From positions 2,688,001-2,752,000 of the forward strand of contig OZ241917.1 of assembly GCA_965203805.1 (NCBI GenBank): a DNA stretch of 64,000 nt, given 5' to 3'. Below the pieces are notes generated by a model, which did not search any database, was not told the origin of the DNA, and worked only from the letters and a program-made list of their open reading frames with translations. The stretch is from Candidatus Latescibacterota bacterium (lineage in GTDB: Bacteria; Latescibacterota; UBA2968; GCA-2709665). Positions 6,449 through 63,997 of the stretch are shown one piece after another (position 1 is the stretch's first letter; every line of letters starts with the position of its first letter). The translations under genes and the position numbers were made by a program.

Positions 6449-6482
6449 TTCAGTAGTTGTGCTGAGCAATTCGGAACGGTCG

Positions 6483-7151: not shown

Positions 7152-8440
7152 GCGCCGGCCTCCAGTTCGCCGGAACGGTGCAGGTCACCGAGAGTCGCGC
7201 CGGTAACGTTTTTGAGCATGTCAACAAGTGTTTTTCGGTCCGACGGGCGATGCCATAGGACCCTAGCATCGTCTTCATCCCGCGCCATCACCGCAACGTC
7301 TTCAATGTCAAAACAGTCAAGCAGATCCGGGCTGTGAGTCGTCACGAGCACCTGCGTGCGTTCCGAGGCAGTCTTGATCATCTCCGCGACGACAGGCAAC
7401 AATCCAGGATGCAGCCCCAATTCCGGTTCGTCAATTGCAACCAGCATGCGAGGCAACGGATTCAATAGGGCCGTTGCCAGGCACAGGAATCGTAGCATGC
7501 CATCCGAGAGATCCCATAGATTCATGGATCGATGCATGCCCTTCTCGCGCACACCCACGAGCACTTGCGGTGGCGTTCCATGGGTAGTGTCACAATGGAT
7601 CTCCTCAAATCCGGGATTGGCAACGCGCAGGAATTCGCGCAGTTCCTCTGCCGCCGAGCGGAAGTCATACCGAGTCAAAATTTCGTGAAGCACGGTTCCG
7701 AGATTGTCGCCATTGCTAGACAATGTTGTAAATGGCGAAATATCGGCGGGTTTTGTACGAAGCGATGAAGAACGAGTTACATCGAAGCCCGGATAGAACG
7801 TCATATTTGCCAACAAAACTCGCACTAGGGATGCAACAGGAAACTCGTTGAAGAACCGGATTTTCGAGAGTAGCAAGGCGACTTCTTGCTGTGCCGGCTG
7901 TGCCGGAACGCTGGGGTGCGCAGTTTCTGTGGAACCGGTCTCACCTACATTCACCTCTGACGGTTGCGCTTCATCAAAGGGTGTTAACTTTCTCTGTCTT
8001 CTGTCAAAAATCTGTTGCCGGTATGGGTTCGCCTCCAAGAACTTGAAGGGTTCGGTATGACCAGGTGCTGGCTTTTGATTTCTGAGAACTTCGTATCGGG
8101 TTTGCATTTGGTACAGAGTATCTGGCACTAACTCGACCGCGTACACCAGTGATTTTTCTTCTTCTAGTTGTAAAATGTCCGATAGGGCGGAGTGATGAAG
8201 AGTGATGCTCCATGTCAACTGTTTGTTAACATCATTCGCGGAAAGCAACGACGCCGCCCCATAATGCCAGCCAATTGCCGTATTCAGTGGAACTTCGCAA
8301 CACTCCGCGATTAATTGCAGGCAATCGATCAGCGTACTCTTGCCTACGGCATTTGCACCGATCACCACGGTGAGCGGCTTGAAATCGGCCTTGAAGTCGT
8401 CGAGAAGCCGGTAGCCCCCGATTTCGATTTCAGTAATCAT
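7148..8440 (-). CDS. ABC-type (AAA_21/AAA_15-like) ATPase
   Basis: MITEIEIGGYR start at 8440, Walker A GANAVGKS, signature LSDGMLR, Walker B IDEPELGLHP, H-loop TTHSP. Confidence 0.9.
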   Translation of the reverse strand: MITEIEIGGYRLLDDFKADFKPLTVVIGANAVGKSTLIDCLQLIAECCEVPLNTAIGWHYGAASLLSANDVNKQLTWSITLHHSALSDILQLEEEKSLVYAVELVPDTLYQMQTRYEVLRNQKPAPGHTEPFKFLEANPYRQQIFDRRQRKLTPFDEAQPSEVNVGETGSTETAHPSVPAQPAQQEVALLLSKIRFFNEFPVASLVRVLLANMTFYPGFDVTRSSSLRTKPADISPFTTLSSNGDNLGTVLHEILTRYDFRSAAEELREFLRVANPGFEEIHCDTTHGTPPQVLVGVREKGMHRSMNLWDLSDGMLRFLCLATALLNPLPRMLVAIDEPELGLHPGLLPVVAEMIKTASERTQVLVTTHSPDLLDCFDIEDVAVMARDEDDARVLWHRPSDRKTLVDMLKNVTGATLGDLHRSGELEAGA

Positions 8441-8767
8441 GAGATTAACCCTTTCAATCCGATTGCCGCCTGCAGTATTTGATGTTGTCTGGCCCGGCAT
8501 CTGACGCCGGTATAGGTACAAGCGGTCGACGATCTCTTCAACGCGTGTCGACCGCCTGCGATACCGTCCAACCCGGAAATTCGATCCCTTTGGCCGTTCG
8601 TCCCGGTATCGCACGGACGTGTGAACCGGGTATAATAAATGCCCCTTTTCAGATTCTCTGTCAAGGAGCATCACACAGGCAATGACTGTGCCGGATCAAC
8701 TACATTTCACTCACGATTCCGATCGTCGATCGCCATACGGACGGTTGGGGAGATTCGGTCTCTCCGG

Positions 8768-39514: not shown

Positions 39515-40342
39515 TCAGGCGGGATCCTGTTCACTGGGCGTTTCGACCGGCTTCGCTTCGCGCTGCGCCATTTGATTGAACCACCACAAACCGGCCACGG
39601 CCCCGACGATACCGCTCACAAACAACCACCAGGGAAGGAACTCTACAACATGCCAATCCTCGATAGGTCGGAATAACTCCATACGCACCGATATCAACGA
39701 CAGAAAATTGTTCAGCGCGTGACCGAACAACGCGGGCAGCAAGGAACCTGTGTGTATGACCCACCACGCAAATACGATACCCAGTATCATAGATACCGGA
39801 AATTGCCAGGGATTCATATGGAGCACGGCGAACAGTAACGCGGACCACAGAATGGCACGCCTCCGGGTACCATGGGCTAACAACCCGCCCAGAATGACGC
39901 CTCTGCAGAGGACCTCCTCGGTAAGCGGCGCTTGAATCGCCAGGACATAAAACGCAAGACCAAATGGTGTTTTACTGCCCATCAAATCAAGAAACACGTC
40001 GAGTATTACTTCGGGGATTGGAATCAGATATTGTACGAAGCTTGCAAGGTTGGATGAGAAAATGCCCAATCCCACGATCGAGACGGAAACGGGTAAGTAC
40101 ATTTTCCACGGAACTGTCTTGAAAAGCAGGATGTCGGACCACGGCCGACGGGATCGACGTTGCGCATATAGCACGATCAGACCAACGGCGGGCAGATTTA
40201 CAATCAATTTCAGGTAATCGAAGATCCGTGTCGCATTGCCCGACGCGACGCCGAGGAAATGAAGCACCAACCCCAATGCGTTCATTGCTACGAAAAGCAG
40301 GACCACCAACCAAACGGATTGCTTCAAATTCGGATAGGCCAT
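39515..40342 (-). CDS. CPBP (type II CAAX/Abi) intramembrane metalloprotease, paralogue 4
   Basis: MAYPNLKQ start; TEEVLCRG, FAVLH, GHALNN. Confidence 0.92.
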   Translation of the reverse strand: MAYPNLKQSVWLVVLLFVAMNALGLVLHFLGVASGNATRIFDYLKLIVNLPAVGLIVLYAQRRSRRPWSDILLFKTVPWKMYLPVSVSIVGLGIFSSNLASFVQYLIPIPEVILDVFLDLMGSKTPFGLAFYVLAIQAPLTEEVLCRGVILGGLLAHGTRRRAILWSALLFAVLHMNPWQFPVSMILGIVFAWWVIHTGSLLPALFGHALNNFLSLISVRMELFRPIEDWHVVEFLPWWLFVSGIVGAVAGLWWFNQMAQREAKPVETPSEQDPA

Positions 40343-40426
40343 TGATTTCCTCCCTTTCAAGCGGTCAGATGTTCGCACATCTGACGATCCGGATTCCCGG
40401 CGAGGGTCGTCGTCGGGGTTCCGTCA

Positions 40427-41254
40427 TCAGAACTGTTCCCGACCTTCCGGCGTCGCGACCTGTGTGCCTCCGCGCATGGACATCCCATTAAACCACCACA
40501 GTCCGATCAGGGCCAGAATCATGCCGGAACCATGCATCCACCAGGGAAGCATCATACCGGCGCTGACACCATCCGTGGATCCGAGGACGCCAAGATACGA
40601 GGCCGTCACGATCAGAAAGTTGTTCAGCGCGTGTCCGACGATGGCGGGCAGCAGGGAGCCGGTTTGTACGACAATCCATGCGAATACGATCCCCAACAGA
40701 AAAGCGGCGGGAAACTGCCATGGATCTATATGGATAATTGCAAACAGCACCGCCGACCAGACGATGGCTCGAGCCGGAGTCCGGTGGGCCAGCAGGCCGC
40801 CAAGTATAACGCCTCTGAAGAGGACTTCCTTTAAAAGCGGCGCCTGAATCACCATGGTATAAAATCTAAGCGGAAAGGGCTTCTCCTTCCTGGCCCGATC
40901 CCCGACCACATCGAGCATTCCTTCGGGCGGGGATATCAGGTGCCGCAGCAGGTTACCCAGGTCCGATCCGACGATTGCCAATCCGACGACGGCCACGACA
41001 AGCGGAATGTACAATTGTAACGAAACGGCCTTGAACGGCAAGATTTCGGACAAGGTCCGATCGGTTCGACGCTTTGCGTAAAGAACCGCCAGGATGAATC
41101 CGGTCAATATCGAGAGCTGGACGACGTATGGATTCTGGTTTAACTCCTGGCCGACAATCATGCCATGGACGGCAAACGGCACGGTGATTGTCAGGCTGAA
41201 CAGGAAAAACAGCACCACGAGCCATACGGATTGCTTCAAATTGGGATAGGCCAT
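40427..41254 (-). CDS. CPBP intramembrane metalloprotease, paralogue 3 (EE motif changed to KE)
   Basis: LLKEVLFRG, FAIIH, GHALNN. Confidence 0.9.
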   Translation of the reverse strand: MAYPNLKQSVWLVVLFFLFSLTITVPFAVHGMIVGQELNQNPYVVQLSILTGFILAVLYAKRRTDRTLSEILPFKAVSLQLYIPLVVAVVGLAIVGSDLGNLLRHLISPPEGMLDVVGDRARKEKPFPLRFYTMVIQAPLLKEVLFRGVILGGLLAHRTPARAIVWSAVLFAIIHIDPWQFPAAFLLGIVFAWIVVQTGSLLPAIVGHALNNFLIVTASYLGVLGSTDGVSAGMMLPWWMHGSGMILALIGLWWFNGMSMRGGTQVATPEGREQF

Positions 41255-42456: not shown

Positions 42457-43260
42457 CTATTCTGATTCCCTGACAGGATAGCAAATGTCCGCCTGTTGCA
42501 TCTCCGTTTGCAGCCAGTTGCTGAACAATGTGTGGCGAATCTCGCTGATGACGCGATCTGTCAGCCTCGCAGGATAGCTTCTCTGCAGCATATACAGTGC
42601 GAAGCCGCCAGGCGCTTTGTCGGGACCGAAGACCTCACCCGGCGCGGCAGCGAAGAGGCGCGCGGCAATGCCCTTCGGCAGATGTTCTCGCCGCAACCGC
42701 CCCCTAAACCCGCCGGCAGGCCGTGTGCGCTCGTCCTGAGAGAATTCGCGGGCTAATGCGCAGAAATCGGCGCCGTCTTCACGTATCTGAAATCGGATTT
42801 CGTCGATGACGCCTCTGTCCTTATGGAAAATCCAGCAGACCTCGGCCTCGTCGAAATCCAGCGTGTGCTGTGCGAAGTAGGGTTCAATCCGTCCCTCCGT
42901 GATTTTTCCGGACATCATGCGCTCCAATCGCCTTACCTGGGCGTCTTCGGCAACGTCACCCAGGGTTATGCCTCGGGACCGGAGCCAGGCTTCCGTGTCT
43001 TCCACGCGTTCCAGGCGATGTCGATACCGCCAGTCGTCGACGTCGCGCTGGATATCCTCAGCCTTCGCGTGGATGCCCTCCCTCTCCGCGAGCTGCCGCA
43101 CCAGCTCTCTTCGAGCGTACTCACCGAGGAATCCGAGGTTGTCTGCAACGCCCAGATGGCGCACAACCTGTTTCAGTGACACGGCGATTCCATTGACCCG
43201 AACCAGCGATAAGGCCCCGGCCTCGTTTGCGGGTTCGTGTTCATCCTGACGGCGCATCAC
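42457..43260 (-). CDS. PpiC/rotamase-like foldase associated with the peptide exporter
   Basis: FCALAREFSQDE..GGFRG..LP; SurA-like helical N-part; ATGA-coupled to HlyD. Confidence 0.82.
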   Translation of the reverse strand: MMRRQDEHEPANEAGALSLVRVNGIAVSLKQVVRHLGVADNLGFLGEYARRELVRQLAEREGIHAKAEDIQRDVDDWRYRHRLERVEDTEAWLRSRGITLGDVAEDAQVRRLERMMSGKITEGRIEPYFAQHTLDFDEAEVCWIFHKDRGVIDEIRFQIREDGADFCALAREFSQDERTRPAGGFRGRLRREHLPKGIAARLFAAAPGEVFGPDKAPGGFALYMLQRSYPARLTDRVISEIRHTLFSNWLQTEMQQADICYPVRESE

Positions 43261-44657
43261 GTCTCGCCCTGGCGCGCGGACGGCGTTGTCGCGGCATCGT
43301 ACGTTGCGGACTCGTACAGCTTTCGCAAAGGACTCAGCAGCATCAGCAGGACCGACTGGCGGTCCGTCATGATCTCCGCCGTGCCCTTCATGCCGAAGAG
43401 GAGCGGCTTTTCCTGTCCTTTCACGGCCATGGTGGTCTCCTCCAATTCAACGACCCCTTTGAATATCGGCCCTACGGTCTCGTCGACGACGGCGTCCGGC
43501 GAGATCTGCTTGAGCAATCCGCGTTTAATTCCGAAGTCCTGGAACGCGAAAGCGTCGTATTTCAATTTGACGATCTGTCCCGGCTTGAGCAGGCCCACGT
43601 CCTTGTTCAAAACAGTCAGTTCGGCGACGATCGGCGCGGACGCCGGCGCCAGAGTCGCCAGAGCCTGTCCTTTGTTGATGACATGTCCGAGCGTATTCAC
43701 CTCCACGCGGGTTACAATTCCGGCCTCCGGGGCCAGAATCAGGTCCGATTCGGCATCGAGCTGGCGATCGACGCGTTTGCGCGCCTGATCCAGCCTCAGC
43801 CGCGCGGTCTTGTATGCGTGCCTGATCTGCGCGGCCTCGCGGCCGTGAGCGATGCGAGCCTCGAGAATCCGGCGCTTGAGGTCCTGCACCGCCGTTTCGT
43901 TCTTGTAGATTTCCGACATGCGTCCGGGAAGCTGCGCAAGGGCGGTCAGATATCTGACGCGCGCGCGATTGATCTCCGCCCTGCTGATCAGTTGGCGTTC
44001 GTACAGCATCTTCTGCTGCAGATAGTCTTGTTTCAAATGATCGATTTCGGCCTGACGAAAGCCGATTTGCGCCTGCAATTCCGCATCCGACGGGCCCGCT
44101 CCCCCTTCCTCGAGGGCGCCCACGTCGGCGTGGTAATCCTGCAAGGCATTCTGGTGGGCGACCATGAACCGCTCCAGAACGGACAGCCGTTTATTCAGCG
44201 AAGCGATCGTTTCCCGGTTCAATTCAGTCCTCTGGGGCAATACATGGTGATATTCGTACTCGGCCTTCTGAAACGCCATTTCCGCTTGTTCGAGTTCACG
44301 CAGGTCTCCCCAGGTTTCCCACGATTTGAGCTTGAACAGCAATTGGCCTTCTTCGATGTGGTCGCCTTCCGTAATACCGATGTATTCGATTTCACCGCCG
44401 CGACGGGCCTGCAACGTCTTCACTTTTCCGAGCGGTACGAGCCTGAACGGCGCTGACGCGACCACGTCCACCTTGCCCCACCACGCCCACACGACCGCGA
44501 TGCCGACAAACAGGAGCACGATATATAACAACGCCCGGCCCCAAAACGGTCGGAGGGACCCGATAAACGCGCGCATGTCTTCGGCCGCGTCGTCCCGGGG
44601 CCCGACAACGACAGTCGGCGCGGTACCGGGTGAGGATTTCAGCGGGTGTCCCGTCAC
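43257..44657 (-). CDS. HlyD-family membrane fusion protein
   Basis: N-terminal TM, EGDHIEEGQLL, long coiled coil, DAFAFQDFG, GMKGTAEI. Confidence 0.93.
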   Translation of the reverse strand: MTGHPLKSSPGTAPTVVVGPRDDAAEDMRAFIGSLRPFWGRALLYIVLLFVGIAVVWAWWGKVDVVASAPFRLVPLGKVKTLQARRGGEIEYIGITEGDHIEEGQLLFKLKSWETWGDLRELEQAEMAFQKAEYEYHHVLPQRTELNRETIASLNKRLSVLERFMVAHQNALQDYHADVGALEEGGAGPSDAELQAQIGFRQAEIDHLKQDYLQQKMLYERQLISRAEINRARVRYLTALAQLPGRMSEIYKNETAVQDLKRRILEARIAHGREAAQIRHAYKTARLRLDQARKRVDRQLDAESDLILAPEAGIVTRVEVNTLGHVINKGQALATLAPASAPIVAELTVLNKDVGLLKPGQIVKLKYDAFAFQDFGIKRGLLKQISPDAVVDETVGPIFKGVVELEETTMAVKGQEKPLLFGMKGTAEIMTDRQSVLLMLLSPLRKLYESATYDAATTPSARQGET

Positions 44658-47891: not shown

Positions 47892-48767
47892 CTACTTCGG
47901 AGGCAGTGAGCGCCCCACGAGTCCCGGCGTTGCATCCGTCCCGGGATCTTCAGGCGGGACCTCGCCCTCAGAAACGGGCTCAGCGGGCTTCGCAACCCGG
48001 GAAAACCACCACAGTCCCACAGCAGCGAGCGCCACCCCGGCCGCACTGAACCACCAGGGGTTGAACGCTACGTCGTTGAGGTCACCCGAAATGTCTATAT
48101 CCGATATATCAGAATGCAGAATCGTCACGGCGATTAGGTTGTTCAATGCGTGTCCGAACAGGGCGGGCAACAAGGATCCTGTACGGATAACCCACCACGC
48201 CCAGACCATGCCTGATATGAAGATAGGCACAAATGTCCACGGGTCCAGATGCAACATTCCAAACAAGACTGCTGACAATAGAACCGCGCAGACCCTTGAA
48301 TGATGTGCCAGCAGACCACTCAGGATAATGCCTCTGAATAGCAACTCTTCGCCCAGAGGCGCGATGACGGCTGCCCCGAAGACAGCCGACAGAAAAGACG
48401 TCTTGCGCAGGATCTCCGAACGATAGATTTCCTGCATCCACTCGGGAACGGGAGCAATCCGAATCGCGACTTTCATCAATTCGGTATCGAGCATCCCCAG
48501 GCCGACGACTGATATTGCAACGCAGGGCCATATCCGCCAATCAAACCGCGTGTTGAATAGAGGACGTATATATCGCCAGTCCAGATCCGTGCGCCGGTAA
48601 ACATAACCCAGAAGAATGACGAAATTCACCAGCAACAGAATTCCCATCAGGAAATCGTCTTCAAACTTCCACCGGTCGACAACGAGCACCGCCACCGCCA
48701 GGCCAACCTGAATCAACAGGAACAGAAACAGTAACCAGATCGTCTGTTTCAGGTTCGGATACGCCAT
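47892..48767 (-). CDS. CPBP intramembrane metalloprotease, paralogue 2
   Basis: MAYPNLKQ; GEELLFRG, FGMLH, GHALNN. Confidence 0.92.
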   Translation of the reverse strand: MAYPNLKQTIWLLFLFLLIQVGLAVAVLVVDRWKFEDDFLMGILLLVNFVILLGYVYRRTDLDWRYIRPLFNTRFDWRIWPCVAISVVGLGMLDTELMKVAIRIAPVPEWMQEIYRSEILRKTSFLSAVFGAAVIAPLGEELLFRGIILSGLLAHHSRVCAVLLSAVLFGMLHLDPWTFVPIFISGMVWAWWVIRTGSLLPALFGHALNNLIAVTILHSDISDIDISGDLNDVAFNPWWFSAAGVALAAVGLWWFSRVAKPAEPVSEGEVPPEDPGTDATPGLVGRSLPPK

Positions 48768-48779
48768 ATGGATAACTTA

Positions 48780-49649
48780 TTATGTTGAGGATGAAGAACC
48801 CGGATCGTACCGCATTGGTTCGTGGGGTTCATCAACGCGTATTGTCGGCGCCTCTCTGGAGGACAAAACGTAGAATCCGGCTTCCGACGAATGATCCTGA
48901 ATCCAACTGTCATTGTCATATCTGCGAGCCTTTGAATAAACCATGACATCTCCCGCGCCTCCGGCAAACGTGGCACAAAGTAGCAAGACCGACCAGACCG
49001 CCGGATCAAACGACAGAATTAAAACCGCGGCGGGTGTTGTTACGATCAACGGGAGTAGCGCGAATGCCCGGTATGCGCTCAGTGTCATCGGTTTGTCAGC
49101 GTGGCAGTAAAAGGCCGTTAATCGCAAGTTGATTCCAAAGTGCAGCGAACTAAATGGAATTTTCCCCCACGCCATCGCGGCAATACCGTGAAGTGCTTCG
49201 TGAATCACAAACAAGGCGATTAGTCCTCCAATCAATTTCCATAGATCGACGAGAGGAAATCGCAGCTCTATCGCCCATGGAAGCAAGGCATCTGCCCCGA
49301 TGACAGACATTCCCGAAATCCAGAACATCAAAAAACACAAACTGTAAATCTCGTGTTTTTCAAGAATCACTTCAGTGACGTTAGAATCCTGGCCGGGTTC
49401 AATTCCGCCTGGATTCGACACACATAACCCGCCGACTGCGGTCACCATTCCCGCTGCGGTTTCATAGAGCTTTTTTCGAAAGATTATAAACGAGAATGCC
49501 TGAACAACCAGGACCGCCATCAGGATCACAAGATCGAATTGAATGACGTACCTGAGAATCAGCAAAGCAGGCGCAACGGAAAATAGCGCATACGATATGG
49601 CCGCGAGAATCCAACGACTCCACGTTCCCCCTGGGAGGACATCCTTCAT
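48780..49649 (-). CDS. DUF3267-like membrane zinc metalloprotease with an extra N-terminal TM pair
   Basis: IHEALHG, AFYCH, ALLPL, GGAGD, WIQDH. Confidence 0.82.
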   Translation of the reverse strand: MKDVLPGGTWSRWILAAISYALFSVAPALLILRYVIQFDLVILMAVLVVQAFSFIIFRKKLYETAAGMVTAVGGLCVSNPGGIEPGQDSNVTEVILEKHEIYSLCFLMFWISGMSVIGADALLPWAIELRFPLVDLWKLIGGLIALFVIHEALHGIAAMAWGKIPFSSLHFGINLRLTAFYCHADKPMTLSAYRAFALLPLIVTTPAAVLILSFDPAVWSVLLLCATFAGGAGDVMVYSKARRYDNDSWIQDHSSEAGFYVLSSREAPTIRVDEPHEPMRYDPGSSSST

Positions 49650-49748
49650 CCGGAACCTCCGATGCTGTGTCTATTGGTCTTTCTTGTGAATCAATGGACT
49701 ATTGCCTGATTTGTTCGTGTCACAAACTTAGAACTCTGCGATCTGCGG

Positions 49749-50603
49749 CTAGTCGCCGTCTGCTGGCGAATCTGCCGTCTCAGTCACGAGGGGGTTGGCT
49801 GATTGCGTCTTCTTCGATATCTGGCGAAACCACCAGAGTCCTAGTGTAGCCAATAACACGCCAGCGCCTGTCCACCACCAGGGATTGAAAAACACAACAT
49901 TGAAGTCTTCTGCTACCTCGAGATATGGTATTTCGAAGTGCAACGTCGTGACGCCGATGAGATTGTTCAATGCGTGGCCGAAAAGCGCAGGCCACAAGGA
50001 TCCAGTCCGGAAATACCACCAGGCGAATACGAGCCCGTACAATAGGGCCGGTGGAAATTGCCAGGGATTGAGATGACCCACGCCAAACAGAAACGCCGAC
50101 CAGAAAATCGCCCTGTTCCTGGTATAGTGTGCCAGCAAACCGGCAAATATCGCGCCTCTGTATAGCAACTCTTCAACGATCGGGGCGACAAACACGGCCC
50201 GGAACACGGCTGAGGAGTAAGATGTTTTGCGCCCGAACTCCGATTTAAAAATGTCCTGGATTAAATCGGGCATAGGAATCAACCGAATTACCGCTTTGTC
50301 CATTTCAAGTAGAACCATCCCGATACCAAAGATCGAAATTGCCACACAAGGCCACACACGCCAATCAAAGTTTGTGTTCAGCAATTGTGATGTGTCTCTC
50401 CAGGTTCGATCCGCGCGGCGGAATACGTAGCGCAAGTAGAGAAAGTAAACCACCAGAGTCGATATGCCTGTCAACAGGTTTTCGTGTCGAGAACTTTCGC
50501 CAAGGACGGTCTGTACAACGTAGATGATGAGTTCCAAAACCGACTCTGTTATCCAGAATAGAACCACTAACCAGATGGACTGCCGAATGTTCGGATACGT
50601 CAT
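49749..50603 (-). CDS. CPBP intramembrane metalloprotease, paralogue 1
   Basis: MTYPNIRQ; VEELLYRG, FGVGH, GHALNN. Confidence 0.92.
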   Translation of the reverse strand: MTYPNIRQSIWLVVLFWITESVLELIIYVVQTVLGESSRHENLLTGISTLVVYFLYLRYVFRRADRTWRDTSQLLNTNFDWRVWPCVAISIFGIGMVLLEMDKAVIRLIPMPDLIQDIFKSEFGRKTSYSSAVFRAVFVAPIVEELLYRGAIFAGLLAHYTRNRAIFWSAFLFGVGHLNPWQFPPALLYGLVFAWWYFRTGSLWPALFGHALNNLIGVTTLHFEIPYLEVAEDFNVVFFNPWWWTGAGVLLATLGLWWFRQISKKTQSANPLVTETADSPADGD

Positions 50604-50910
50604 TCGAATATCCTATCGTAAGGCGTCGCGGACCGTGGTTTCACGTGGGGCCGAGATCTTTAGTTGGATTACGCCTAAAGAAGAAGTAGACGCAAGATAA
50701 TGATCTGGAAAGGTCACTCACACTGCAATCTAAACGTGCCTTCCGGCGCTCTATCCGGATTCCTGCATCGGCTTCCTCGGCAAATTACCAGAGTGAATGA
50801 GGCGTGATCTCGCCGTTCCTCCAGCCCTTTTGCAACCTTAGAGAATGCGAGCGATTGAATGCACTTGGGCCCAAACTCTCCGTGGGCCCTCCCCTCCTCG
50901 CATGGTTGAC

Positions 50911-51516
50911 TCACTCGACTGGGGTCTCGCCCTCCGGCCAAATGGTACAACCAGGTTCGGATGGATGATCTCTGACCCAGAGATTCTTGTCGTAGTCCTG
51001 GACTTTGAAATACATCAATACGTCCCCTGAACACCCTGAGAACGCCACACTGAAGAGTAATAGTGTCCAGATAGCTGGATCCAAAAGGATCACAAGACCG
51101 GTAACGAATGTAGTAACTAAAAGAGGCAGGAGCAGCAAGACACGAAAATTACCCATCCTCATCCGGCTCGAAAAATGGCAATAAGGGGCCAGCCATTTCC
51201 ATTTGAATCCGAAACGAACCGAACTGTATGGGACCTTGCCCCACTTCAGTGCGGCAAAGGCGTGTAGCGCCTCATGAAAGACGACGATGAGAATTGTACA
51301 AGCCAGAAACATCCAGCGGTCGCGATTGAGGAAGCGGAAATCGATTTTCCATAAATTGACTATATCGCCTACTAAAGCAAGAGTAAACGCGAAACAGAAC
51401 ATTACTAACGAAAAAACAACCATATAGACTTTGTCAACGCGAAACTCAAGAATCTCGTGTCCGATCTTATCTCGATCGAGTAATCGCCCCGAATCGGCTC
51501 CTTCATTCATCGGCAT
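50911..51516 (-). CDS. DUF3267-like membrane zinc metalloprotease
   Basis: FHEALHA, APYCH, GCSGD, WVRDHP; GAGG RBS before ATG 51516. Confidence 0.85.
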   Translation of the reverse strand: MPMNEGADSGRLLDRDKIGHEILEFRVDKVYMVVFSLVMFCFAFTLALVGDIVNLWKIDFRFLNRDRWMFLACTILIVVFHEALHAFAALKWGKVPYSSVRFGFKWKWLAPYCHFSSRMRMGNFRVLLLLPLLVTTFVTGLVILLDPAIWTLLLFSVAFSGCSGDVLMYFKVQDYDKNLWVRDHPSEPGCTIWPEGETPVE

Positions 51517-51652
51517 ACCATCCTCACGCTTCCGCGTTCGAATCAAGATTGCAGTGCCTACCAGGTCTCGTGATTGTGACCCCTGGATGGAGAAAATCGG
51601 AAGTCGCAAAGCAGAGTAGCACTTGGGTCTTATCGAATAGCAACGGCATCAG

Positions 51653-51690
51653 GACCGGTGCAGGCTCCCCCATGCAAACCTGCACCGGTC
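51653..51690 (-). terminator. Strong hairpin after the precursor genes
   Basis: 12-bp perfect stem GACCGGTGCAGG/CCTGCACCGGTC; no U-tract, so possibly a stabiliser or attenuator. Confidence 0.5.
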
Positions 51691-51731
51691 GCGTCAGACA
51701 CTGCCTACGGAATCTTTCCGATCTGTCGCTC

Positions 51732-52025
51732 TCAGAAATTCGATAGTCCGTCGGCCATGTCGGATATGAAGCCACCGGCAACGAAATCTACGGCGTCGTT
51801 AGCCCTATCCCAATACCACTGAGCCGCTTCCGCAGTACCTGTGGGATTTGTAATTGCACTGACTGTGATTCCAACCAGTACGCCTAGTACAAATGGAGCT
51901 AAACCTCCGGAAATTTCTGCCACTGATTCCCTAGCCAAATCCTCCTGCAGAATTGGTAAGGTAGAAAATGCTGACAACACTTGGCCAGCATCTGTCGCCA
52001 CTGGATTCGACAATACATGGGTCAT
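51732..52025 (-). CDS. Double-glycine leader peptide precursor 3 (41-aa leader, 56-aa core)
   Basis: AGGAGG RBS; LPILQEDLARESVAEISGG|LAPFVLGVLVG... Confidence 0.8.
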   Translation of the reverse strand: MTHVLSNPVATDAGQVLSAFSTLPILQEDLARESVAEISGGLAPFVLGVLVGITVSAITNPTGTAEAAQWYWDRANDAVDFVAGGFISDMADGLSNF

Positions 52026-52454
52026 TTTATCCTCCTGAAGAGTAAAACGTTATTGCTGATTTGCAAACAAGTGGCTTGAATCTCGCGTTACGAAAACGGT
52101 GACTATTCCTGACGGTTACCGGGTTCGAGAATCGTGCTGTTCCTCTCGTCGGGATGTCAGGTCCGGTGCTCCTTCGATAGCCATGGCGGTCGATCGGGGT
52201 CTGATTATCGAAGGTCCATCGGACGCCAATGTAACACGCACCGTCACTTTATCACGCAGTTTATTCGTTCACTGGCGTGAGGCGCCGGCAAGTCCCGTCT
52301 CCCTACACTAAAGGGAACTTCGTTCATTCACTGTTGGGTTGGATCGCGGAAGATTCCGCGTTGACTTCCCGGAGTCTGCTGAGAAGCCCACTGCATCAGT
52401 AGTCGAGATTGGCAGGATGGATCACTTTCCGCCTGACAAACCCCGCACCGAGTT

Positions 52455-52655
52455 TCAGTCGCCGAAATAATCGGCGATGGCTTCTGCAATTTTCATGCCA
52501 ATCCATCTTGACATGAAACGCGGCCCCAAAGGTGGCACACCAATTCCACCCGATGCATTCGCCATCTCACGCCGCACAAGATTGGTTTCCCGGCCTGGAA
52601 GTTGGGCGCAGGTCGCGACGGCTAGCGCGGGCTGCAACTGAATTCGATCTGTCAT
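52455..52655 (-). CDS. Double-glycine leader peptide precursor 2 (37-aa leader, 29-aa core)
   Basis: GGAG RBS; LPGRETNLVRREMANASGG|IGVPPLGPRFMSRWIGMKIAEAIADYFGD. Confidence 0.72.
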   Translation of the reverse strand: MTDRIQLQPALAVATCAQLPGRETNLVRREMANASGGIGVPPLGPRFMSRWIGMKIAEAIADYFGD

Positions 52656-52736
52656 TTCTCCACGTCCTTTCTGTATTGTTTCTGGCACGAACACGTGAGT
52701 TTTCAATCCAGACTTAACCTGACTGCTTCAACTCCA

Positions 52737-52940
52737 CTACAGTGTACGGCTCGACCTGTCCGGCTCCGGCAAGGTTACGCCGAATATTTCAGCGACCCAA
52801 TTTCTGAGAAGGCGGCCCAGCCCGGCGTCGCCGCCGGAAATTCGTGCGGTCTGCCCTGCGGTCAGGTCTTCCGTCTGAACCGGCAGACGGGCCGGAACTT
52901 CGTGAGACGCCGCAGGGCTCGATGCGATTCTTCTGTTCAT
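52737..52940 (-). CDS. Double-glycine leader peptide precursor 1 (37-aa leader, 30-aa core)
   Basis: AAGGAGGTG RBS before ATG 52940, hidden inside a longer 220-aa ORF call; LPVQTEDLTAGQTARISGG|DAGLGRLLRNWVAEIFG... Confidence 0.75.
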   Translation of the reverse strand: MNRRIASSPAASHEVPARLPVQTEDLTAGQTARISGGDAGLGRLLRNWVAEIFGVTLPEPDRSSRTL

Positions 52941-53166
52941 GTCTTTCACCTCCTTTCGTCGGCATCCTCGCGACGTCCGGACAATCGTGTTGCCCCTCCG
53001 ATAACCGGATTCGCGTCGCGCAGATGCATTGATGTCCGAAGCGTCTGTAACCCTTCTTCCTCCCGCGGCATACGCCCCGCGGGAGGCGGCTTCGGCTTTG
53101 AACCAAAGGGTGCGTTTTGCCACGGAACGCGAGCGCGGTCCGCAACGCTGTCGATGCATTGGAACC

Positions 53167-53181
53167 GCAAGGACTGTGCCA
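53167..53181 (-). promoter_or_regulatory. Sigma-54 promoter candidate for the precursor operon
   Basis: TGGCACAGTCCTTGC matches TGGCAC-N5-TTGC. Confidence 0.65.
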
Positions 53182-53352
53182 CTCGCGACACCCCCCGGCA
53201 TAACTGACTGGCCTGCAAATGCGAATCGATTTGAAGACTTCCGGGAGGCCGATGTCTCTCGGCGAATCGTTGAAATATGTGTTCCATTCTGCGTCACTCG
53301 GGTGAAACCATGTTGCCTTTGGCGCCTCAGAGACCCTGTCTGGAACCGGCAC

Positions 53353-53384
53353 AAAAAAACACCGGCGACATAGGTCACCGGTGT
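53353..53384 (-). terminator. Intrinsic terminator
   Basis: ACACCGGTGAC-CTAT-GTCGCCGGTGT followed by a T run on the minus strand. Confidence 0.6.
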
Positions 53385-53655
53385 ATTCATTGAAAACATA
53401 GAGGGGTTACGTCATCTCGCGTTCCGCCGAGGTTGATCAGAGAGGCAAGAAGTCAACGAGAAGCGAAGGGGACCCGTGATCGGCCCATTCAAAACGACTG
53501 AATTCCAGTTGCCGAACTTCCGGGATATCGTTAAACTTGGGACAACGTTGTCAATCTTTCAGCGGAACGTACGTCAGAAATGTTCCTTCAGTCTCCAGAT
53601 TTATCGTTCACATACCGGGCTGCGGCCCTACACGATCTGCAACCGATCGATAACC

Positions 53656-54099
53656 ATGCCTCAATTCGGCAAATATCTGTCTCCAACGTTCGGAAAATTC
53701 CTGGTCACCGGTCTGGGCGGCGTGTTTGTCAACCTCGGTTCGTTTCAACTGATGCTCACGCTCGGCGTGCACCCGCTGCTGGCGTCGCCGATAGCGATCG
53801 AGCTGTCGATCATCTCCAATTTCCTCCTCAACAACTACTGGACCTTCCGCGACCGCTCGCTGTCCGGAAGACGACGGATTCGGGGTTTGAAGTATCATAT
53901 TGTTTCGTTTGTGACGCTGTTGCTGAGCTACGGCACCTTCGTGTTGCTCTCCGTGTTGTTCACGGATGTGCCGCTGATCATCCTGCAGGGATGCGCGATC
54001 GCCCCGGCCGGCGTGCTGAACTACTCCGCCAACTCGCTCTGGACGTTTCGCGAGGAAACTCGCGAGGGTCGAGACGACGTCCGGGGCGGAACGGGATGA
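53656..54099 (+). CDS. GtrA-like membrane protein
   Basis: KFLVTGLGGVFVN, SIISNFLLNNYWTF, NYSANSLWTF. Confidence 0.85.
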   Translation: MPQFGKYLSPTFGKFLVTGLGGVFVNLGSFQLMLTLGVHPLLASPIAIELSIISNFLLNNYWTFRDRSLSGRRRIRGLKYHIVSFVTLLLSYGTFVLLSVLFTDVPLIILQGCAIAPAGVLNYSANSLWTFREETREGRDDVRGGTG

Positions 54100-54435
54100 C
54101 GGAATACCCGAATCCCCGTGTGCCCTCCTCCCGCTAGTCTCGGCTCCCGTTGCCTCTAACTCGTCTGAAATACGTGGATTACTTCCCCACTTCATTCACA
54201 GAGAAGCCTTGTGACTCGGGCCGATCGGACGCCTGTTCCAACGTAAAGCGGGGCGCATGAATTATCGTTAACAAGAGAGGACCGGCGAACGCAACAGGGG
54301 TGATTTTTCTTACTGCAATCACTTGACACGGCGGAACAGGGTGGGTATTATCAAGGCGCGACCAGGATCGCAACCGCCTGACGATTCCGATAGATGAATG
54401 GGTAGGTTTTCCACGGGGTAGAAGCCAGTCGCGTC

Positions 54436-54903
54436 GTGGAGGTCCATACAGTGAGAAATGTCGATATTGCGGTGACCGGCGCCGATGGAACACTCCAGCT
54501 CGTCCTGGAAATCAAGAACGTGCCGGGTGCAACTGCCGAGTGGGTCATCCTGATGCGTCGCAACTTGCTTGCCCATTCGTTTCTGCCTCCGGCGCCATTC
54601 TTCCTGCTTGTGCTCCCGGACTTTTTGTACCTCTGGACAGGGTCCTCTACGTTAGATGGTTTGGCAAAACCTGACTATAAAATCGAAACCTCCGAAATGC
54701 TCGCGCCATATCTTAAATATAACCAATCCCTTATTGAACTAAGTCGATATGGGCTGGAAATGCTTACGGTGTCGTGGCTGGAAGATATACTTCATGCTGA
54801 CCTGAGACGAGACTCGGTTGACGGCAATCTCAGATGGATTTTTGACTCGGGGTTATATAGAGCAATTACAAACGGTTCCCTGGAACTCGAAGCGATGACA
54901 TGA
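54436..54903 (+). CDS. Hypothetical protein with a PD-(D/E)XK-like motif
   Basis: VDIAV...LVLEIK; ATGA-coupled to the PIN gene. Confidence 0.65.
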   Translation: MEVHTVRNVDIAVTGADGTLQLVLEIKNVPGATAEWVILMRRNLLAHSFLPPAPFFLLVLPDFLYLWTGSSTLDGLAKPDYKIETSEMLAPYLKYNQSLIELSRYGLEMLTVSWLEDILHADLRRDSVDGNLRWIFDSGLYRAITNGSLELEAMT

Positions 54904-55505
54904 TTGTATACCTTGAGTCAAATTTCGTACTTGAACTGGCATTTCTTCAAGCCGAGCATGAACATTGCTCGGCACTTTTGCGTCTATCGGAATCGGGAGA
55001 GATTCGCCTGGTTTTACCGGCATTCAGCATCGGTGAACCGTACGAAACGTGGGTGCGCCGCTCGAAGCGAAGACGAGACGTCCACGAGGAGTTGACTACC
55101 GCAATTCGAGAACTTTCCCGGTCAAGTCCTTACGAACGGGTAACCGACCATTTCCACGAACTCACTGGAATACTGATCCGAAGTGGTGAGGAGGAGAAGC
55201 GCCGTTTGGATGAAACCCTGGAAGACATCCTGAGAACCGTTGAAGTAATACCGATTGGATTGAGCATTATCAGAGCGGCCATAAATTACCAAAGGAAGCT
55301 AACCCTTTCGCCGCAAGATTCGATAGTTTACGCTTCGGTTCTCGATCACCTGAATCCAGAATCATCCGAGCCAGGCTGTTTCATAACCACGAACTCAAGA
55401 GATTTCGCCAATCCGGACATCGAAACCGAACTTACTGACCACAACTGCCGGCTGCTGACAAAATTCGCCGACGGCGTGGGGTATATCCGAAGTCAGTTGT
55501 CGTGA
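54900..55505 (+). CDS. PIN-domain protein (DUF4935-like)
   Basis: IVYLESNFV, SIGE, PQDSIVYAS, FITTNSRDF. Confidence 0.82.
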   Translation: MIVYLESNFVLELAFLQAEHEHCSALLRLSESGEIRLVLPAFSIGEPYETWVRRSKRRRDVHEELTTAIRELSRSSPYERVTDHFHELTGILIRSGEEEKRRLDETLEDILRTVEVIPIGLSIIRAAINYQRKLTLSPQDSIVYASVLDHLNPESSEPGCFITTNSRDFANPDIETELTDHNCRLLTKFADGVGYIRSQLS

Positions 55506-60425: not shown

Positions 60426-62255
60426 TTATCCGCTTGCTTGCGAGTTTAAATCTCCGTGCCACAGCCGCTGCATCTCTTCGCAGTTTTCGAGGAGAGCGTC
60501 CAATGTACCCTCCGCGCAGATGCGCCCGTCCTTGAGGACGATGATATTGTCGGCGCGCCGCAAGGCGGCTCGACGATGCGATACCAAGAGATACGTGCCG
60601 ACGTAGGGGGCGGTCGCGGTCAACCCCCGCTGGTCAAATACCCGCTCCCACAATACCCGCTCCGTCTCGACGTCGAGGGCGCTGGAGAGGTCGTCGAACA
60701 CGACCAGTTCCGGTTCACGCACAAACGTCCGCGCGGCTGCCGTCCGAAGAACCTGCCCGCCTGAGAGTTTTGCGCCACTCGGCCCAATCAACGTATCCAA
60801 TCCGTTTCCAAGCGCCTCCAAATCGTCTTCCATCACAGCCTTGCCAATTGCCGCAGGGAGATCAACACGATCTTCACGCAACCCCAGAAGAATGTTGTCT
60901 CGAAGCGTGTCGCTGAACAGGCGCGGAACCTGGGGCGTATATGCACATCGCGGAGGGACGAGGAACGACGCCGGGTGCGGCACGTGCTCGCCATTCCAGT
61001 AGATGTCTCCCGCATCCCCGGGCAGGTAACCCAACAGGGACTCCAGAAGCGTGGTCTTGCCGGATCCAATTTGTCCGGTGATCACCGTTACGGTCCCGGC
61101 TTCCAGAAACAGATCTATCCCTTCGATTCCCCGTCGGGTCTCCGGATGACGATAGCTCAAGCCTTCCACGCACAGGTGCCGTAAAGAGTGAAACCTCATT
61201 TTTCTGATATACGGAACGGGTGGAAGATCACCCCGCAGGTAAGCCGGGCCGGGTCGGACAAGGGTATCTTGAGCAATGCCCGGCAACAGTTCACGGAGTC
61301 GCTCGAAGGAAACGCAGGCCTGTTTGTGCGCGGCCAACAACGCTCCCAGGCGGTCTGCAAATGCCAAAACGGTAAATTCACCCATGGCGATGTAACTGAC
61401 AAACAGCGCGAAATCACCGACGGTAAAGTCCCCTTCTCTCATCCGTTCGGCGGCAAATATCAGAATTACGCCGGTCGCCAGGTTGATTGTCGTGGAATTC
61501 ATCGATGCCAGCAGCCGGTTGAAGAGCCGTTCCCTGATTGCCGCTCTACGCCTTGCTTCGTTCAGCCCGTCGAAACGCAGGACGGCGTGCGTCTCGCTGT
61601 CTGCAGCCTTTACTGCCAGTACCGCCGCGAAGAGATCTCCGAGGAATCCAGTGACGCGGCCCGTGCTTTCCCGGCTTTCATGCCTGTATGACCTGATTCG
61701 CCTTCCCAATCCGTTTGCAAGGAGTAAAATAGCTGTCATCGGTATGAATGCCATAAGCGTGATATACCGATTGACACTCAAGAGCACGGCCAAGGCAAAC
61801 ACGGCGGCGAGCGCATTCCCGGTGAGAGAGAGTAAATTGGTTATGGGGGCCACCGCGCCATCGATATCGTCATCCAATCGGTTGACGATATCGCCCGACC
61901 CATGTTCGGCACGGCTTTGCGCGTCCTGCAGGAGACTCTCGAACAGATTCGCGCGGATACGTGTCTTCAGTTTCCCCTCGAAATACGCGTAGGTCGCGGC
62001 ATATCCCTGCTCGGCGACCTGCACGGCGAATCGGGTGGCAAGAAAGAGGATCACAAGGGTCGAGATACCGAAGCGGACATCCGTGTCCCGTGTCAGGGCG
62101 TTGAAGAACTCACGCAGGATCAGGCCGACGATCAGGGGAAACCCGAAATAGCCCAGAGACAGGATGACACCAAGCAAGAAAAGCCAGGGACTGAATCGTA
62201 TCAGCGCCAGGTAATACGGGCCCCTGCCTGCTGCCTCTTGGACTGTTGATATCAC
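60426..62255 (-). CDS. ABC exporter, fused permease/ATPase (heterodimer subunit)
   Basis: [13 protein letters not shown], degenerate Walker [10 protein letters not shown]. Confidence 0.92.
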
Positions 62256-63997
62256 GACTGTTTCCCCTCCAGTCCCGTTCGCAACAGTCCGTAAAGGACG
62301 GAATTGGGATTCTCCGCCAGATCCGCGTACGCCCCGGTTTCCTGGATTCGTCCTTCGTCCAGAATCATGACTTCGTCCGCCCGATGCACGGTCGAAAGAC
62401 GGTGCGCGATGATAATCGCGGTCCGATTCCGGAGGAGTTCGTCCATTGCCCGGACAAGGCGGCTCTCGGTTACCGCGTCCAGGCGCGCAGTAGCTTCGTC
62501 CAGAATCAGCAAACCAGGCTCCCTCAGGAAAACCCGCGTAAATGCCAACAACTGCGCCTCACCCGCGGAGAGGCCACCGCCACCCGGCGGCATTCGCGTA
62601 TCGAGACCCTCAGGAAGCGACTCGTACCATACATTCAGTCCCAATGCCCGAAGCCCAGCCAGAACGCAATCATCCTGAATCGATCGATCGAACAAAGTCA
62701 GGTTGTCGCGAACCGATGACTGGAACAGCTGTACGTCCTGCGTGACCAATCCAACGCGCCGGCGAAGTTCGGACAGCCGCGGTTTGAGGATGTCTGTGCC
62801 GCCGATGAAAATCGATCCGCGACTGGCGTCGTACAGGCGAAACAGAAGTCGGGACAGCGTTGTCTTCCCGCACCCGGTACGTCCCAGCAGGCCAAGTACT
62901 TTGCCCGAATCCAGCTGAAACGTGAGATGATCCAGTACCGTTTTTCCGTGCTCGTAGGAAAAGCAGACGTTCCGGCACTCGACGGAAAGCGCGCCCGACG
63001 GGAGAATGGCTCCGGGGCCGTCCTGAATCCCTGTTCCGGTCGCCCTGAGTTCTTCGATGCGCTCAGCGCCAACCCTGATCCGCTGGAAGACTTCAACCTG
63101 CCTTTGAATCCGGTTCAGGGGCGTGTGCAGCATCTGAAGGTAATGGAGCACGAGATAGACGGTGCCGATGGTAATGGCGTTCGCCCCAAACAGAATTGCT
63201 CCATACGCCATCGCCACGGCGAAACCGGCCGCGAACACGATGTTCGATATGGACCATCCCGCATCCGTGATCACGTCGGCCTTGAACGCCGTTGTGAACG
63301 CCCGCCTCACAGCCTCGTGGAAGCGGCGCATCGTATAGGGGATTGCGCCGGCTGCCCGTATGTCCCGCAGACCCGCAAGACGTTCCTCCAGAAAACCGGA
63401 CAGCTCTGCGCCGGCTTGCCTTTCGGCATGCCAGAACGACACCGACATTTGTTGGGCGCGAATGTGAACCGTCAGATATACGGCTGCAAATGCGCCGAGC
63501 ATTGCGCCCAGTCGCCAGTCTTCCACCGTGAGCACGATCAACACGCCAAGCGTCACCAGGAGGCCGCCAATCAGTTCAATCACGAAATCCGAAAAAAAAG
63601 CGCCGAGTCGACTCACGTCGCCGTCAACGCGCTCAATCAGTTCGCCTGGTGTGCGCTTGTTGTGAAAAGACATATCCAGGCTCAGGATGTGACCCGTCAG
63701 ATCGGACCGCAGGCGGTTGGTCGCACGCCAGCTCACGTCGCTGCAAACGTAGCCTGCCAGGGCGGACACGGTCTGGTGAATCATCCCCACGCTAATGAAC
63801 AACAAGCCCGCGCGGATGAGCTGCTCCAGTGATCCTCCCTCCCGTGCTGTATCGATGAAGAAACGCATGATCAGAGGGTTGATGAGCTGCAGACCGATCC
63901 CGCCTGACAACAGTAGCGCCATCACCAGAACCCTCGGCCACTGCGGCTTGAGATAGCGAACGAGCAACTTCAAATACTGGCTCACCGGTTCTTTCAT
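62252..63997 (-). CDS. ABC exporter, fused permease/ATPase (heterodimer subunit)
   Basis: GRTGCGKT, degenerate signature [12 protein letters not shown]; ATGA-coupled to its partner. Confidence 0.92.

Follow-up and report, generated by a model that had tools for sequence, protein, structure and literature searches.

The 64-kb stretch of a Latescibacterota genome analyzed here (referred to as the window) carries on its minus strand an array of genes in the order P3-P2-P1, DUF3267, CPBP, DUF3267, CPBP, PCAT, HlyD, parvulin, CPBP, CPBP. P1 to P3 are small precursor genes with double-glycine leaders, and PCAT is a peptidase-containing ATP-binding cassette (ABC) transporter; coordinates are collected in Table 1. 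An earlier note on this DNA had claimed that the three precursors have an exact leader register in common and may represent a new leader family. Consistently, all three 19-mers are present, and leader residues -19 to -1 of P1, P2, and P3 align gap-free as LP-x5-L-x5-A-x2-SGG. The pattern LP.{5}L.{5}A..SGG has three matches in the six frames of the window and again three, at the same places, in the six frames of the whole genome of 5,865,457 bases. A refined leader hidden Markov model (HMM) applied to 106,774 open reading frame (ORF) segments of the genome returned the three precursors with expectation values (E) of 1.3e-15, 5.8e-14, and 1.2e-10; when a fourth or decayed precursor was sought in the 430-base gap between P1 and P2 and in the rest of the genome, the next best match of this model had an E of 0.2. 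With the family HMM, the values were 2.5e-14 for P3, 3.9e-16 for P2, and 6.0e-11 for P1.

Each of the three genes starts with an ATG downstream of a GGAG-type site. The leaders, announced in the earlier note as long (37 to 41 amino acids), have 37 (P3), 37 (P2), and 41 (P1) residues. The P3 leader reads MNRRI...LPVQTEDLTAGQTARISGG and is followed by an amphipathic helix-type core beginning with DAGLG, while the P2 leader reads MTDRI...LPGRETNLVRREMANASGG and precedes the core IGVPP...IAEAIADYFGD. The P1 core, which starts with LAPFV, features a transmembrane-type helix with a GxxxG element (GVLVG), then TNP, then WYWDRANDAVDFV...MADGLSNF. The stated core lengths of 30, 29, and 56 residues were confirmed, as was the presence of Trp in all three, and none of the cores, two of which the note had called neutral to acidic, is cationic, with counted net charges of 0 (P3), 0 (P2), and -5 (P1). 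Two of the genes are indeed mis-started in the ORF track, which begins P2 at a TTG at 52706 (83 amino acids) and P3 at an ATG at 53399 (220 amino acids), 153 codons too early; because of the family alignment and the GGAG-type sites, we place the starts at the ATGs at 52655 and 52940, respectively.

Upstream of P3, a consensus scan located a terminator-like hairpin on the minus strand (53359..53384; 11 pairs followed by a T run), probably where a separate transcription unit for the precursors begins; the evidence is weak, as the scan found 3 such sites versus 3.0 expected from shuffles. A promoter scan found no sigma-70-like site upstream of P3. DNA nearly identical to the locus is present in sponge and marine metagenome runs from four studies. 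Two other metagenome runs (X7 and X10) have an insert of approximately 296 to 300 bases bordered by another copy of positions 52539 to 52622 (80 to 84 bases of P2 leader DNA), which amounts to an additional tandem precursor sharing leader DNA. Other metagenome contigs match just 37 bases, 52546 to 52582; leader DNA is therefore conserved among paralogues.

Table 1. Positions of the genes of the array in the window and of examples from related loci (the latter preceded by an L number, which denotes the locus)
Feature	Position	Strand	Remarks
Precursor P3 (slot A)	52737..52940	-	67 amino acids: leader 37, core 30
Precursor P2 (slot B)	52455..52655	-	66 amino acids: leader 37, core 29
Precursor P1 (slot C)	51732..52025	-	97 amino acids: leader 41, core 56
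DUF3267 membrane zincin, HEALH	50911..51609	-	PF11667, E 1.1e-16; directly after P1
CPBP/Rce1-like intramembrane protease	49749..50603	-	PF02517, E 2.6e-21; EELLYR, FGVGH, HALNN
Second DUF3267 membrane zincin	48780..49649	-	PF11667, E 3.7e-15
Second CPBP/Rce1-like intramembrane protease	47892..48767	-	PF02517, E 1.9e-21
PCAT exporter, 1013 amino acids	44685..47726	-	two cyclic nucleotide-monophosphate (cNMP) stretches, C39 peptidase, ABC membrane domain, ATPase
HlyD-type periplasmic adaptor	43257..44657	-	TIGR01843, 205.7 bits, cut-off 208.65
PrsA/SurA-like parvulin protein, 267 amino acids	42457..43260	-	start overlaps HlyD stop
Third CPBP paralogue	40427..41254	-	downstream of parvulin gene
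Fourth CPBP paralogue	39515..40378	-	downstream of parvulin gene
Slot D precursors, examples	L016:3684-3947, L043:4532-4783, L013:7667-7936
Extra peptidases, sister clade	L016:8580-9644, L043:8822-9895, L035:7138-9926

Distribution and conserved positions of the leader

With the exporter as anchor, 58 loci were gathered: 45 of Latescibacterota type, a few of them labeled Gemmatimonadota or "uncultured bacterium" and possessing exporters that are 79 to 80% identical, and 13 distant partial matches from other phyla. A leader HMM seeded with the three window leaders alone and iterated three times over 23,762 six-frame ORF segments (E < 0.01) yielded 114 members: the three of the window, 111 distributed over 44 of the 45 related Latescibacterota loci, and none in the 13 loci from other phyla. 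The earlier note had suggested just such a scan of related genomes, in which a lack of additional members was to speak against a family; the result is clearly the opposite. All 114 members are located on the exporter's strand and upstream of PCAT, 111 of them begin at an ATG, and a Shine-Dalgarno-like site precedes 107.

When the leader profile was compared with 1.84 billion representative proteins, 102 cluster representatives were obtained at E ≤ 1e-3. Approximately 97 of these are short and begin with the leader; the five others are long repetitive proteins and are taken to be false positives. Within the phylum, 41 of 168 species genomes carry the leader, all of them belonging to two families of one order. 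With the window's genome left out, 17 of 21 and 23 of 31 genomes of these families are positive, compared with 0 of 115 in the other twelve families, and the leader is present in all 14 genomes of the window's own genus. Public names of the family proteins, where there are any, are limited to "hypothetical protein," and a look-up of ten divergent members gave this name or nothing. No description of the family was found in the open-access literature searched on bacteriocins or ribosomally synthesized and posttranslationally modified peptides (RiPPs) of Latescibacteria and on double-glycine systems combining cNMP and C39 domains; the available part of one paper on sponge Latescibacterota mentions generic antiSMASH "RiPP-like" clusters only. 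No leader model of Pfam or NCBIfam matches the leader of any of the 114 members, including the curated double-glycine (TIGR01847-type), Nif11 (TIGR03798), and NHLP (TIGR03793) models, and neither P2 nor P3 has a match in NCBIfam (E ≤ 1) or Pfam (E ≤ 0.01). The 111 further members, their spread over 41 of 168 genomes, and the lack of a Pfam or NCBIfam leader model bear out the proposal of a new leader family.

Judged by its sequence, the last 13 residues of the leader are those of a canonical double-glycine leader. Gly at -2 is present in all 114 members, and position -1 is Gly in 87 and Ala in 4 of the 92 that could be aligned there. Leu at -12 is found in all three window leaders and in 108 of 114 members, followed by Glu or Gln at -8 (97 of 114), Met at -7 (75), and Ala at -6 (77). 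The resemblance to double-glycine leaders at -12, -7, and -4 that the earlier note had pointed out was found as described, with V, M, and T at -7 and I, A, and I at -4 in P1, P2, and P3, respectively. For the C39 peptidase LahT150, the last 13 leader residues are reported to suffice, with residues -4, -7, and -12 sitting in a hydrophobic groove (PMC6363468). According to the available text of the same report, LahT150 accepts Thr at -4, and Thr at -7 (as in P3) and Ala at -4 (as in P2) are not among the variants described there.

The novelty lies in the conserved part beyond these 13 residues. Leu at -19 is present in all 114 members and Pro at -18 in 97; Cys occupies position -22 in 81, and the N terminus conforms to M-x-x-R, with Arg in 90 of 112. 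Together, the upstream stretch of approximately 24 residues follows the pattern M-x-x-R-I-x-S-x-P ... L-19, P-18. Leader length is similarly constrained, amounting to 37 residues in 64 members and 41 in 26, with few others. It is this stretch from -13 to -37, with Leu-Pro at -19/-18, that defines the family, and the C39 domain has no known use for it.

A subfamily of approximately 21 of the 114 leaders has A-G-I-D-G and an invariant Leu in place of S-G-G (e.g., L027:9447-9839, L034:7546-7833, and L002:8053-8403). Register on L-19 and L-12 would place the cut after Gly-Leu in these cases, an uncommon site for a C39 peptidase. Glycine-zipper-like cores come after these leaders.

Exporter, accessory proteins, and core peptides

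The exporter unites the two cNMP stretches (PF00027, E 2e-27), the peptidase (PF03412, E 6e-40), and the two ABC transporter domains (PF00664 and PF00005) in one protein. Its C39 domain aligns best with LahT150 (6mpz; E 7.9e-23) and PCAT1 (4ry2), and the residues aligned to the catalytic Cys, His, and Asp of these structures are found in SDCGAAC, NHFVVL, and ADPA, respectively. Scores obtained with curated models were all below the respective cut-offs, i.e., 589.2 versus 853.3 for TIGR03796 (NHLP-type bacteriocin exporter), 625.7 versus 725.55 for TIGR01846 (HlyB), and 511.1 versus 523.85 for TIGR01193 (bacteriocin ABC transporter).

HlyD and the parvulin protein are the only other proteins that constantly accompany the leader. 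The parvulin protein matches PF00639 (E 3.2e-10) and, over profile positions 83 to 335 of 340, TIGR04500 with 89.5 bits versus a cut-off of 180. Its predicted structure, which has a predicted local distance difference test (pLDDT) value of 83.7, comprises a chaperone domain and a parvulin domain. Foldseek retrieved 5htf, 9hga, 6vj6, and 2pv3 with a probability of 1.00 and template modeling scores (TM-scores) of 0.33 to 0.49; the fold matches to 5htf, 2pv3, and 6vj6 have E values of approximately 1e-7 to 4e-8, and the protein thus resembles PrsA/SurA foldases. Because there is no N-terminal hydrophobic signal, it is presumably cytoplasmic. In 42 of the 45 related loci, its gene comes after that of HlyD. 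As for the three exceptions, the contigs of L018 and L039 end in or just after the exporter genes, and the exporter of L049 was matched over its first 345 residues only. Among the 168 genomes, which are related and therefore do not represent independent counts, 39 have both the leader and the parvulin protein, 2 the leader only, 2 the parvulin protein only, and 125 neither; of the four discordant genomes, three have fragmented assemblies and one a weak parvulin match. Parvulins favor Pro that is preceded by a hydrophobic residue, for instance Leu. A predicted complex of the parvulin protein and the leader, in a run without controls, scored 0.21, the mark being 0.32, which speaks neither for nor against binding.

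The cores fall into many types, and their net charge is negative in 88 of the 114 members, neutral in 10, and positive in 16. The earlier note had described the three cores as Cys-free and unrelated. The former statement holds for all three cores of the window and not for the family as a whole, in which only 54 of 114 are Cys-free. The latter goes too far in view of an acidic amphipathic motif, approximately [VI]-[AV]-D-x-[IV]-[SG]-[DE]-x-[VFI]-[DGS], which expectation maximization identified in 67 nonredundant cores (examples are IADAIVDYFD, VVDCVSEWID, and IRDLVAEIFG), and of conserved gene slots. The log likelihood of the motif was 218.7 at width 8 and 270.3 at width 10, compared with 125.3 ± 4.3 and 158.0 ± 6.4, respectively, in shuffled sets. 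These shuffled sets are the fair control; in 56 of 67 cores the best site scored above the 95th percentile of shuffles, but the matrix used for this count had been trained on the very cores to which it was applied. Of the window precursors, P2 has a strong motif (IAEAIADYFG; 14.4 bits, a score reached by 0 of 2000 shuffles), P3 a moderate one (LRNWVAEIFG; 6.5 bits, reached by 1% of shuffles), and P1 just a marginal one (5.9 bits, reached by 9%).

Gene order is fixed in clade I, which comprises the window and 15 loci: slot A (P3-like) is occupied in 15 of 16 and slot B (P2-like) in 13 of 16, and in 15 of 16 the last slot holds a longer hydrophobic peptide, either P1-like (slot C) or of a further type (slot D). 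Slot D cores consist of a hydrophobic or transmembrane helix and a C-terminal run of up to seven Cys residues (...CCCCCCCDD, ...CCSCSCKK). The P1 core family, of which 27 sequences were compared, features an invariant Pro in TNP and an invariant Trp in W-Y-x-D-R and usually ends with ADGLSN. With a 19-residue hydropathy maximum of 1.87, the GxxxG helix of P1 is, on sequence grounds, predicted to be hydrophobic enough to cross a membrane; a model of P1 built with 27 homologues places a helix at residues 43 to 59 with low confidence (pLDDT 48.5). Precursor sets differ between genomes whose PCATs are 91 to 93% identical. Matches of the 114 members to known peptide models are few, amounting to four for PF10439 Bacteriocin_IIc (best E 2.6e-5), four for TIGR03949 (best E 0.0074), and several for glycine-zipper families. 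P1 itself was considered as a class IIb two-peptide bacteriocin (lactobin A/cerein 7B, TIGR03949) and rejected, as residues 35 to 58, comprising the leader end and the core start, reach 14.9 bits (E 0.017) versus a cut-off of 21.5 and the charge is -5.

The genes between the precursors and PCAT encode two kinds of membrane protease. DUF3267 proteins are described as intramembrane zinc proteases of the S2P clan, one of which, TmcP, cuts the leader off the bacteriocin TMcin in the producer membrane (PMC13712780). CAAX/CPBP proteases, defined by the motifs EExxxR and FxxxH, have been connected, where they occur in bacteriocin loci, with immunity, processing, receptor function, and signal-peptide maturation (PMC9298176). 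Among the related loci, at least one CPBP or DUF3267 gene lies between precursors and PCAT in 20 of 21 loci with a transmembrane-type core and in 8 of 24 loci without one. The gene following a transmembrane-type precursor (23 cases) encodes DUF3267 in 12, CPBP in 4, and another precursor in 6; in the remaining case, neither protease gene occurs before PCAT. On the basis of these counts, the proteases are therefore regarded as accessories tied to the hydrophobic peptide and not as parts of the core system. The G+C content is approximately 0.49 to 0.55 over the precursor and protease part, compared with 0.59 in the genome and 0.57 to 0.62 in the exporter. The low-GC stretch from 48000 to 55500, which suggests an exchangeable cassette, spans the precursors and the four protease genes as well as a GtrA-like gene (53476-54099) and, at 54436-55505, a PIN_12-domain gene with an unknown ORF.

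Pfam scans of the neighbors revealed no modification enzyme linked to the operon, and because none is encoded in the window's clade, the peptides are probably unmodified apart from proteolysis. The sister clade (L016 to L047) presents a different picture. In 28 of its loci two glycosyltransferase genes, and in 3 more loci one of the two, are located directly upstream of the precursors. They encode a protein of approximately 850 residues with GT4 and GT28-C parts and a 467-residue GT1-family protein (e.g., L028:3015-6949, L043:13-4031, and L045:3094-7100). The gene of an AraC-type response regulator often precedes them; such a gene lies upstream in 10 clade II loci. Many sister-clade cores have Cys as the first residue or are rich in Ser, Thr, Asp, and Glu. 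From these sequence features, the sister-clade peptides may be glycosylated. The window's genome has no homologue of the glycosyltransferase pair above 150 bits, and the window's clade likewise is without the pair. In some sister-clade loci, additional peptidases are encoded between precursors and exporter, either one of the S41 tail-specific type, accompanied by two unknown ORFs, or an M16 pair (Table 1).

Two other groups of genes in the window may be mentioned. At 60426 to 63997, upstream on the same strand, lie two neighboring genes for ABC exporters of 609 and 581 amino acids that have no peptidase domain. A gene for an AAA_21 (AbiEii-like) ATPase (7148-8674) lies near that of a 1311-residue DEAD-helicase/DUF559 protein (2588-6523); the two possibly form a defense-type pair unrelated to the peptide system.

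Proposed function and alternative readings

Reading the locus from its sequences, we consider it probable that P1 to P3 are the precursors of a multi-peptide, bacteriocin-like set that is exported by PCAT and HlyD after a cut behind SGG, with help from the parvulin protein and under control by the cNMP domains, and that the DUF3267 and CPBP proteases protect the producer or process the peptides. By homology, the last 13 or so leader residues, with L-12, M/T/V-7, I/A-4, and S-G-G, would dock as a helix in the adjacent C39 domain, which would cut after Gly-Gly. The cores would then be exported by the ABC part together with HlyD and an outer-membrane channel encoded outside the locus, and the cNMP domains would probably gate this export on a nucleotide signal, as proposed for HetC. 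Slots A and B would each yield a short, neutral, amphipathic peptide and slot C a longer one containing a transmembrane helix; the proteases would provide self-protection against, and/or additional processing of, chiefly the transmembrane peptide. The conservation of the upstream 24 or so leader residues points to a second recognition element that would be dispensable for C39. Its best candidate reader is the presumably cytoplasmic parvulin protein, followed by the cNMP domains of PCAT. We infer such a bipartite leader because conservation of the distal part exceeds what C39 needs and because leader and parvulin protein are codistributed.

In favor of the export reading are the uniqueness of the three leaders in the genome, the constant placement of the 114 members before PCAT, HlyD, and the parvulin gene, and the alignment of the C39 catalytic residues. 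Its bacteriocin-like side is suggested by the matches of some members to PF10439, TIGR03949, and glycine-zipper models, by the protease genes at loci with transmembrane-type cores, by the published roles of CPBP proteases and TmcP, by the changing precursor sets and the extra tandem copy, and by the low G+C content of the precursor and protease part. Several points weigh against this bacteriocin-like reading. The cores are neutral or acidic, with 88 of 114 net negative, which is unusual for membrane-active bacteriocins. The common core motif, the conserved A-B-C slots, and the conserved P1 core family fit a conserved function better than an arms-race toxin. Every curated transporter and adaptor model was matched below its cut-off, and the role assigned to the parvulin protein is inferred from co-occurrence and fold. 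As for the proteases, 17 of the 45 loci have no CPBP or DUF3267 gene between the precursors and PCAT, and the Fisher value of 2.8e-5 for their association with transmembrane-type cores overstates the case, since the loci are related and not phylogenetically independent.

The same anionic or neutral charge, common motif, conserved slots, and conserved P1 core family would suit peptides that leave the cell by the same cut-and-export route and serve as signals, either of the pheromone/quorum-sensing type or as symbiosis cues. The cNMP domains would couple their release to the state of the cell, and the CPBP proteases would act in signal maturation or sensing. HetC, a PCAT with a cNMP domain, is a proposed exporter of a signaling peptide (PMC10986499), the CAAX proteases SilX and MroQ have been tied to the maturation of signal peptides (PMC9298176), and the AraC-type response regulator of the 10 clade II loci could be fitted in as well. 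However, no gene for a histidine kinase or receptor was seen in the window operon, each locus encodes three or four distinct peptides along with as many as six membrane proteases, and bacteriocin loci typically show what is seen here, namely, peptide genes ahead of membrane-protein genes, turnover of cassettes, and a low-GC island; in addition, a few cores match bacteriocin and glycine-zipper models. We therefore regard export of signals as unlikely. A bolder variant of the bipartite leader, which we rate equally low, would have C39 read positions -1 to -13 and the parvulin protein read, and perhaps isomerize, Leu-Pro at -19/-18, with cNMP-gated release of an anionic, amphipathic, one-motif cargo, in place of classical cationic bacteriocins, for cell-cell or host interaction and glycosylation of the sister-clade peptides.

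Somewhat less probable again is that P1 and the other transmembrane cores are made in the way of TMcin, i.e., by membrane insertion and maturation by DUF3267, with the Gly-Gly site used for export only or not at all and P3 and P2 as accessory peptides. The description of the DUF3267 protein TmcP as the leader protease of a transmembrane bacteriocin (PMC13712780) provides the model for it, and both the P1 helix, with its hydropathy of 1.87, and the 12 of 23 transmembrane-core precursors directly before a DUF3267 gene are in line with it. P1, however, has a full double-glycine leader like P2 and P3 and lies beside a C39 domain with intact catalytic residues. It is also without Cys, whereas TMcins carry two universally conserved disulfide-forming Cys residues and their clusters are reported from gram-positive bacteria (PMC13712780); moreover, the P1 model with its pLDDT of 48.5 is of low confidence. 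Finally, one might hold that the three ORFs, which are short and annotated at most as "hypothetical protein," are not genes and that the motif arose by chance or from a DNA repeat read in frame. This is practically excluded by the clustering of all three strict matches within 5.87 Mb, by 114 members that keep position, strand, start codon, and ribosome-binding site, and by conservation of the leader at the protein level while the cores diverge, in a family present in 41 genomes.

The family adds more than 200 genes for predicted exported peptides, without a Pfam or NCBIfam name, to an uncultured, sponge-associated phylum, and the leader profile can be used for genome mining. The Leu-Pro at -19/-18 makes a second leader-recognition step testable, in which it would be read by a dedicated parvulin chaperone, and the mostly anionic, motif-sharing cores question the default label "bacteriocin" for double-glycine peptides of diderm bacteria.

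Comparison with known systems

Double-glycine leaders, as known from the substrates of LahT150, PCAT1, and ComA and from class II bacteriocins, lanthipeptides, and competence peptides, are the closest counterpart of the P1-P3 family, with which they have in common Gly-Gly at -2/-1, hydrophobic residues at -4, -7, and -12, Glu or Gln at -8, and an adjacent C39 exporter. The family differs in a leader of 37 to 41 residues that is conserved throughout, with L-19, P-18, C-22, and M-x-x-R-I, and in its mostly anionic cores. Two-peptide and multi-peptide class II loci with Abi/CAAX proteins likewise have tandem double-glycine precursors followed by CPBP, PCAT, and an accessory protein, and P1 recalls their peptides by its GxxxG and its weak TIGR03949 match; in contrast, the peptides described here are non-cationic and are encoded by a diderm, three peptides are accompanied by four CPBP and two DUF3267 genes, and parvulin protein and cNMP domains are universal.

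One conserved leader combined with many cores is also the hallmark of prochlorosin-type systems. The likeness consists of the single leader family, the many cores, and the several precursors per genome. Unlike in these systems, the leader of the window family is not related to Nif11 or NHLP leaders, there is no lanthionine synthetase, and no modification enzyme is present in the window's clade. ProcA substrates are mentioned in the available text of the LahT150 paper (PMC6363468).

TMcin of Staphylococcus aureus (TmcA and TmcP) resembles the P1 part of the locus by family and description, in that a leader peptide with a transmembrane helix is encoded beside a PF11667 HExxH protease and an ABC exporter; the differences are the missing Cys pair of P1, its double-glycine leader and C39 exporter, and the diderm host. 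MirC (TIGR04500), from the rosaritide graspetide cluster with its TIGR03796-type PCAT, provides the parallel of a PpiC/SurA-like protein beside a peptidase-bearing ABC exporter and is described as an obligatory, chaperone-like partner in that cluster (PMC13097080). The parvulin protein of the window, however, lacks the N-terminal domain of MirC and has a clear PF00639 domain, and the matches to both models are below the cut-offs; no ATP-grasp ligase was found among 38 scanned ORFs of the window or 77 chosen ORFs of ten related loci.

HetC of Nostoc PCC 7120 has the same order of cNMP, C39, and ABC domains, the likeness being one of domain order. Its cNMP domain binds guanosine tetraphosphate (ppGpp) in vitro and is needed in vivo; no substrate of it is known, and according to the same report there is no double-glycine-leader gene near hetC (PMC10986499). 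The PCAT of the window differs in having two cNMP stretches and substrates encoded in the same operon, so that a cNMP-domain PCAT is now paired with obvious substrates, the pairing that is missing for HetC.

Overall, as judged from sequence comparison, the family shows the defining features of double-glycine substrates and falls outside every curated leader, exporter, and parvulin-partner model tested. Double-glycine precursors with a PCAT are of an already known kind; what is new is the leader family, the conservation of the distal half of its leader, the fact that a PrsA/SurA-like parvulin protein and an exporter with cNMP domains constantly accompany it, and the mostly anionic, motif-sharing cargo.

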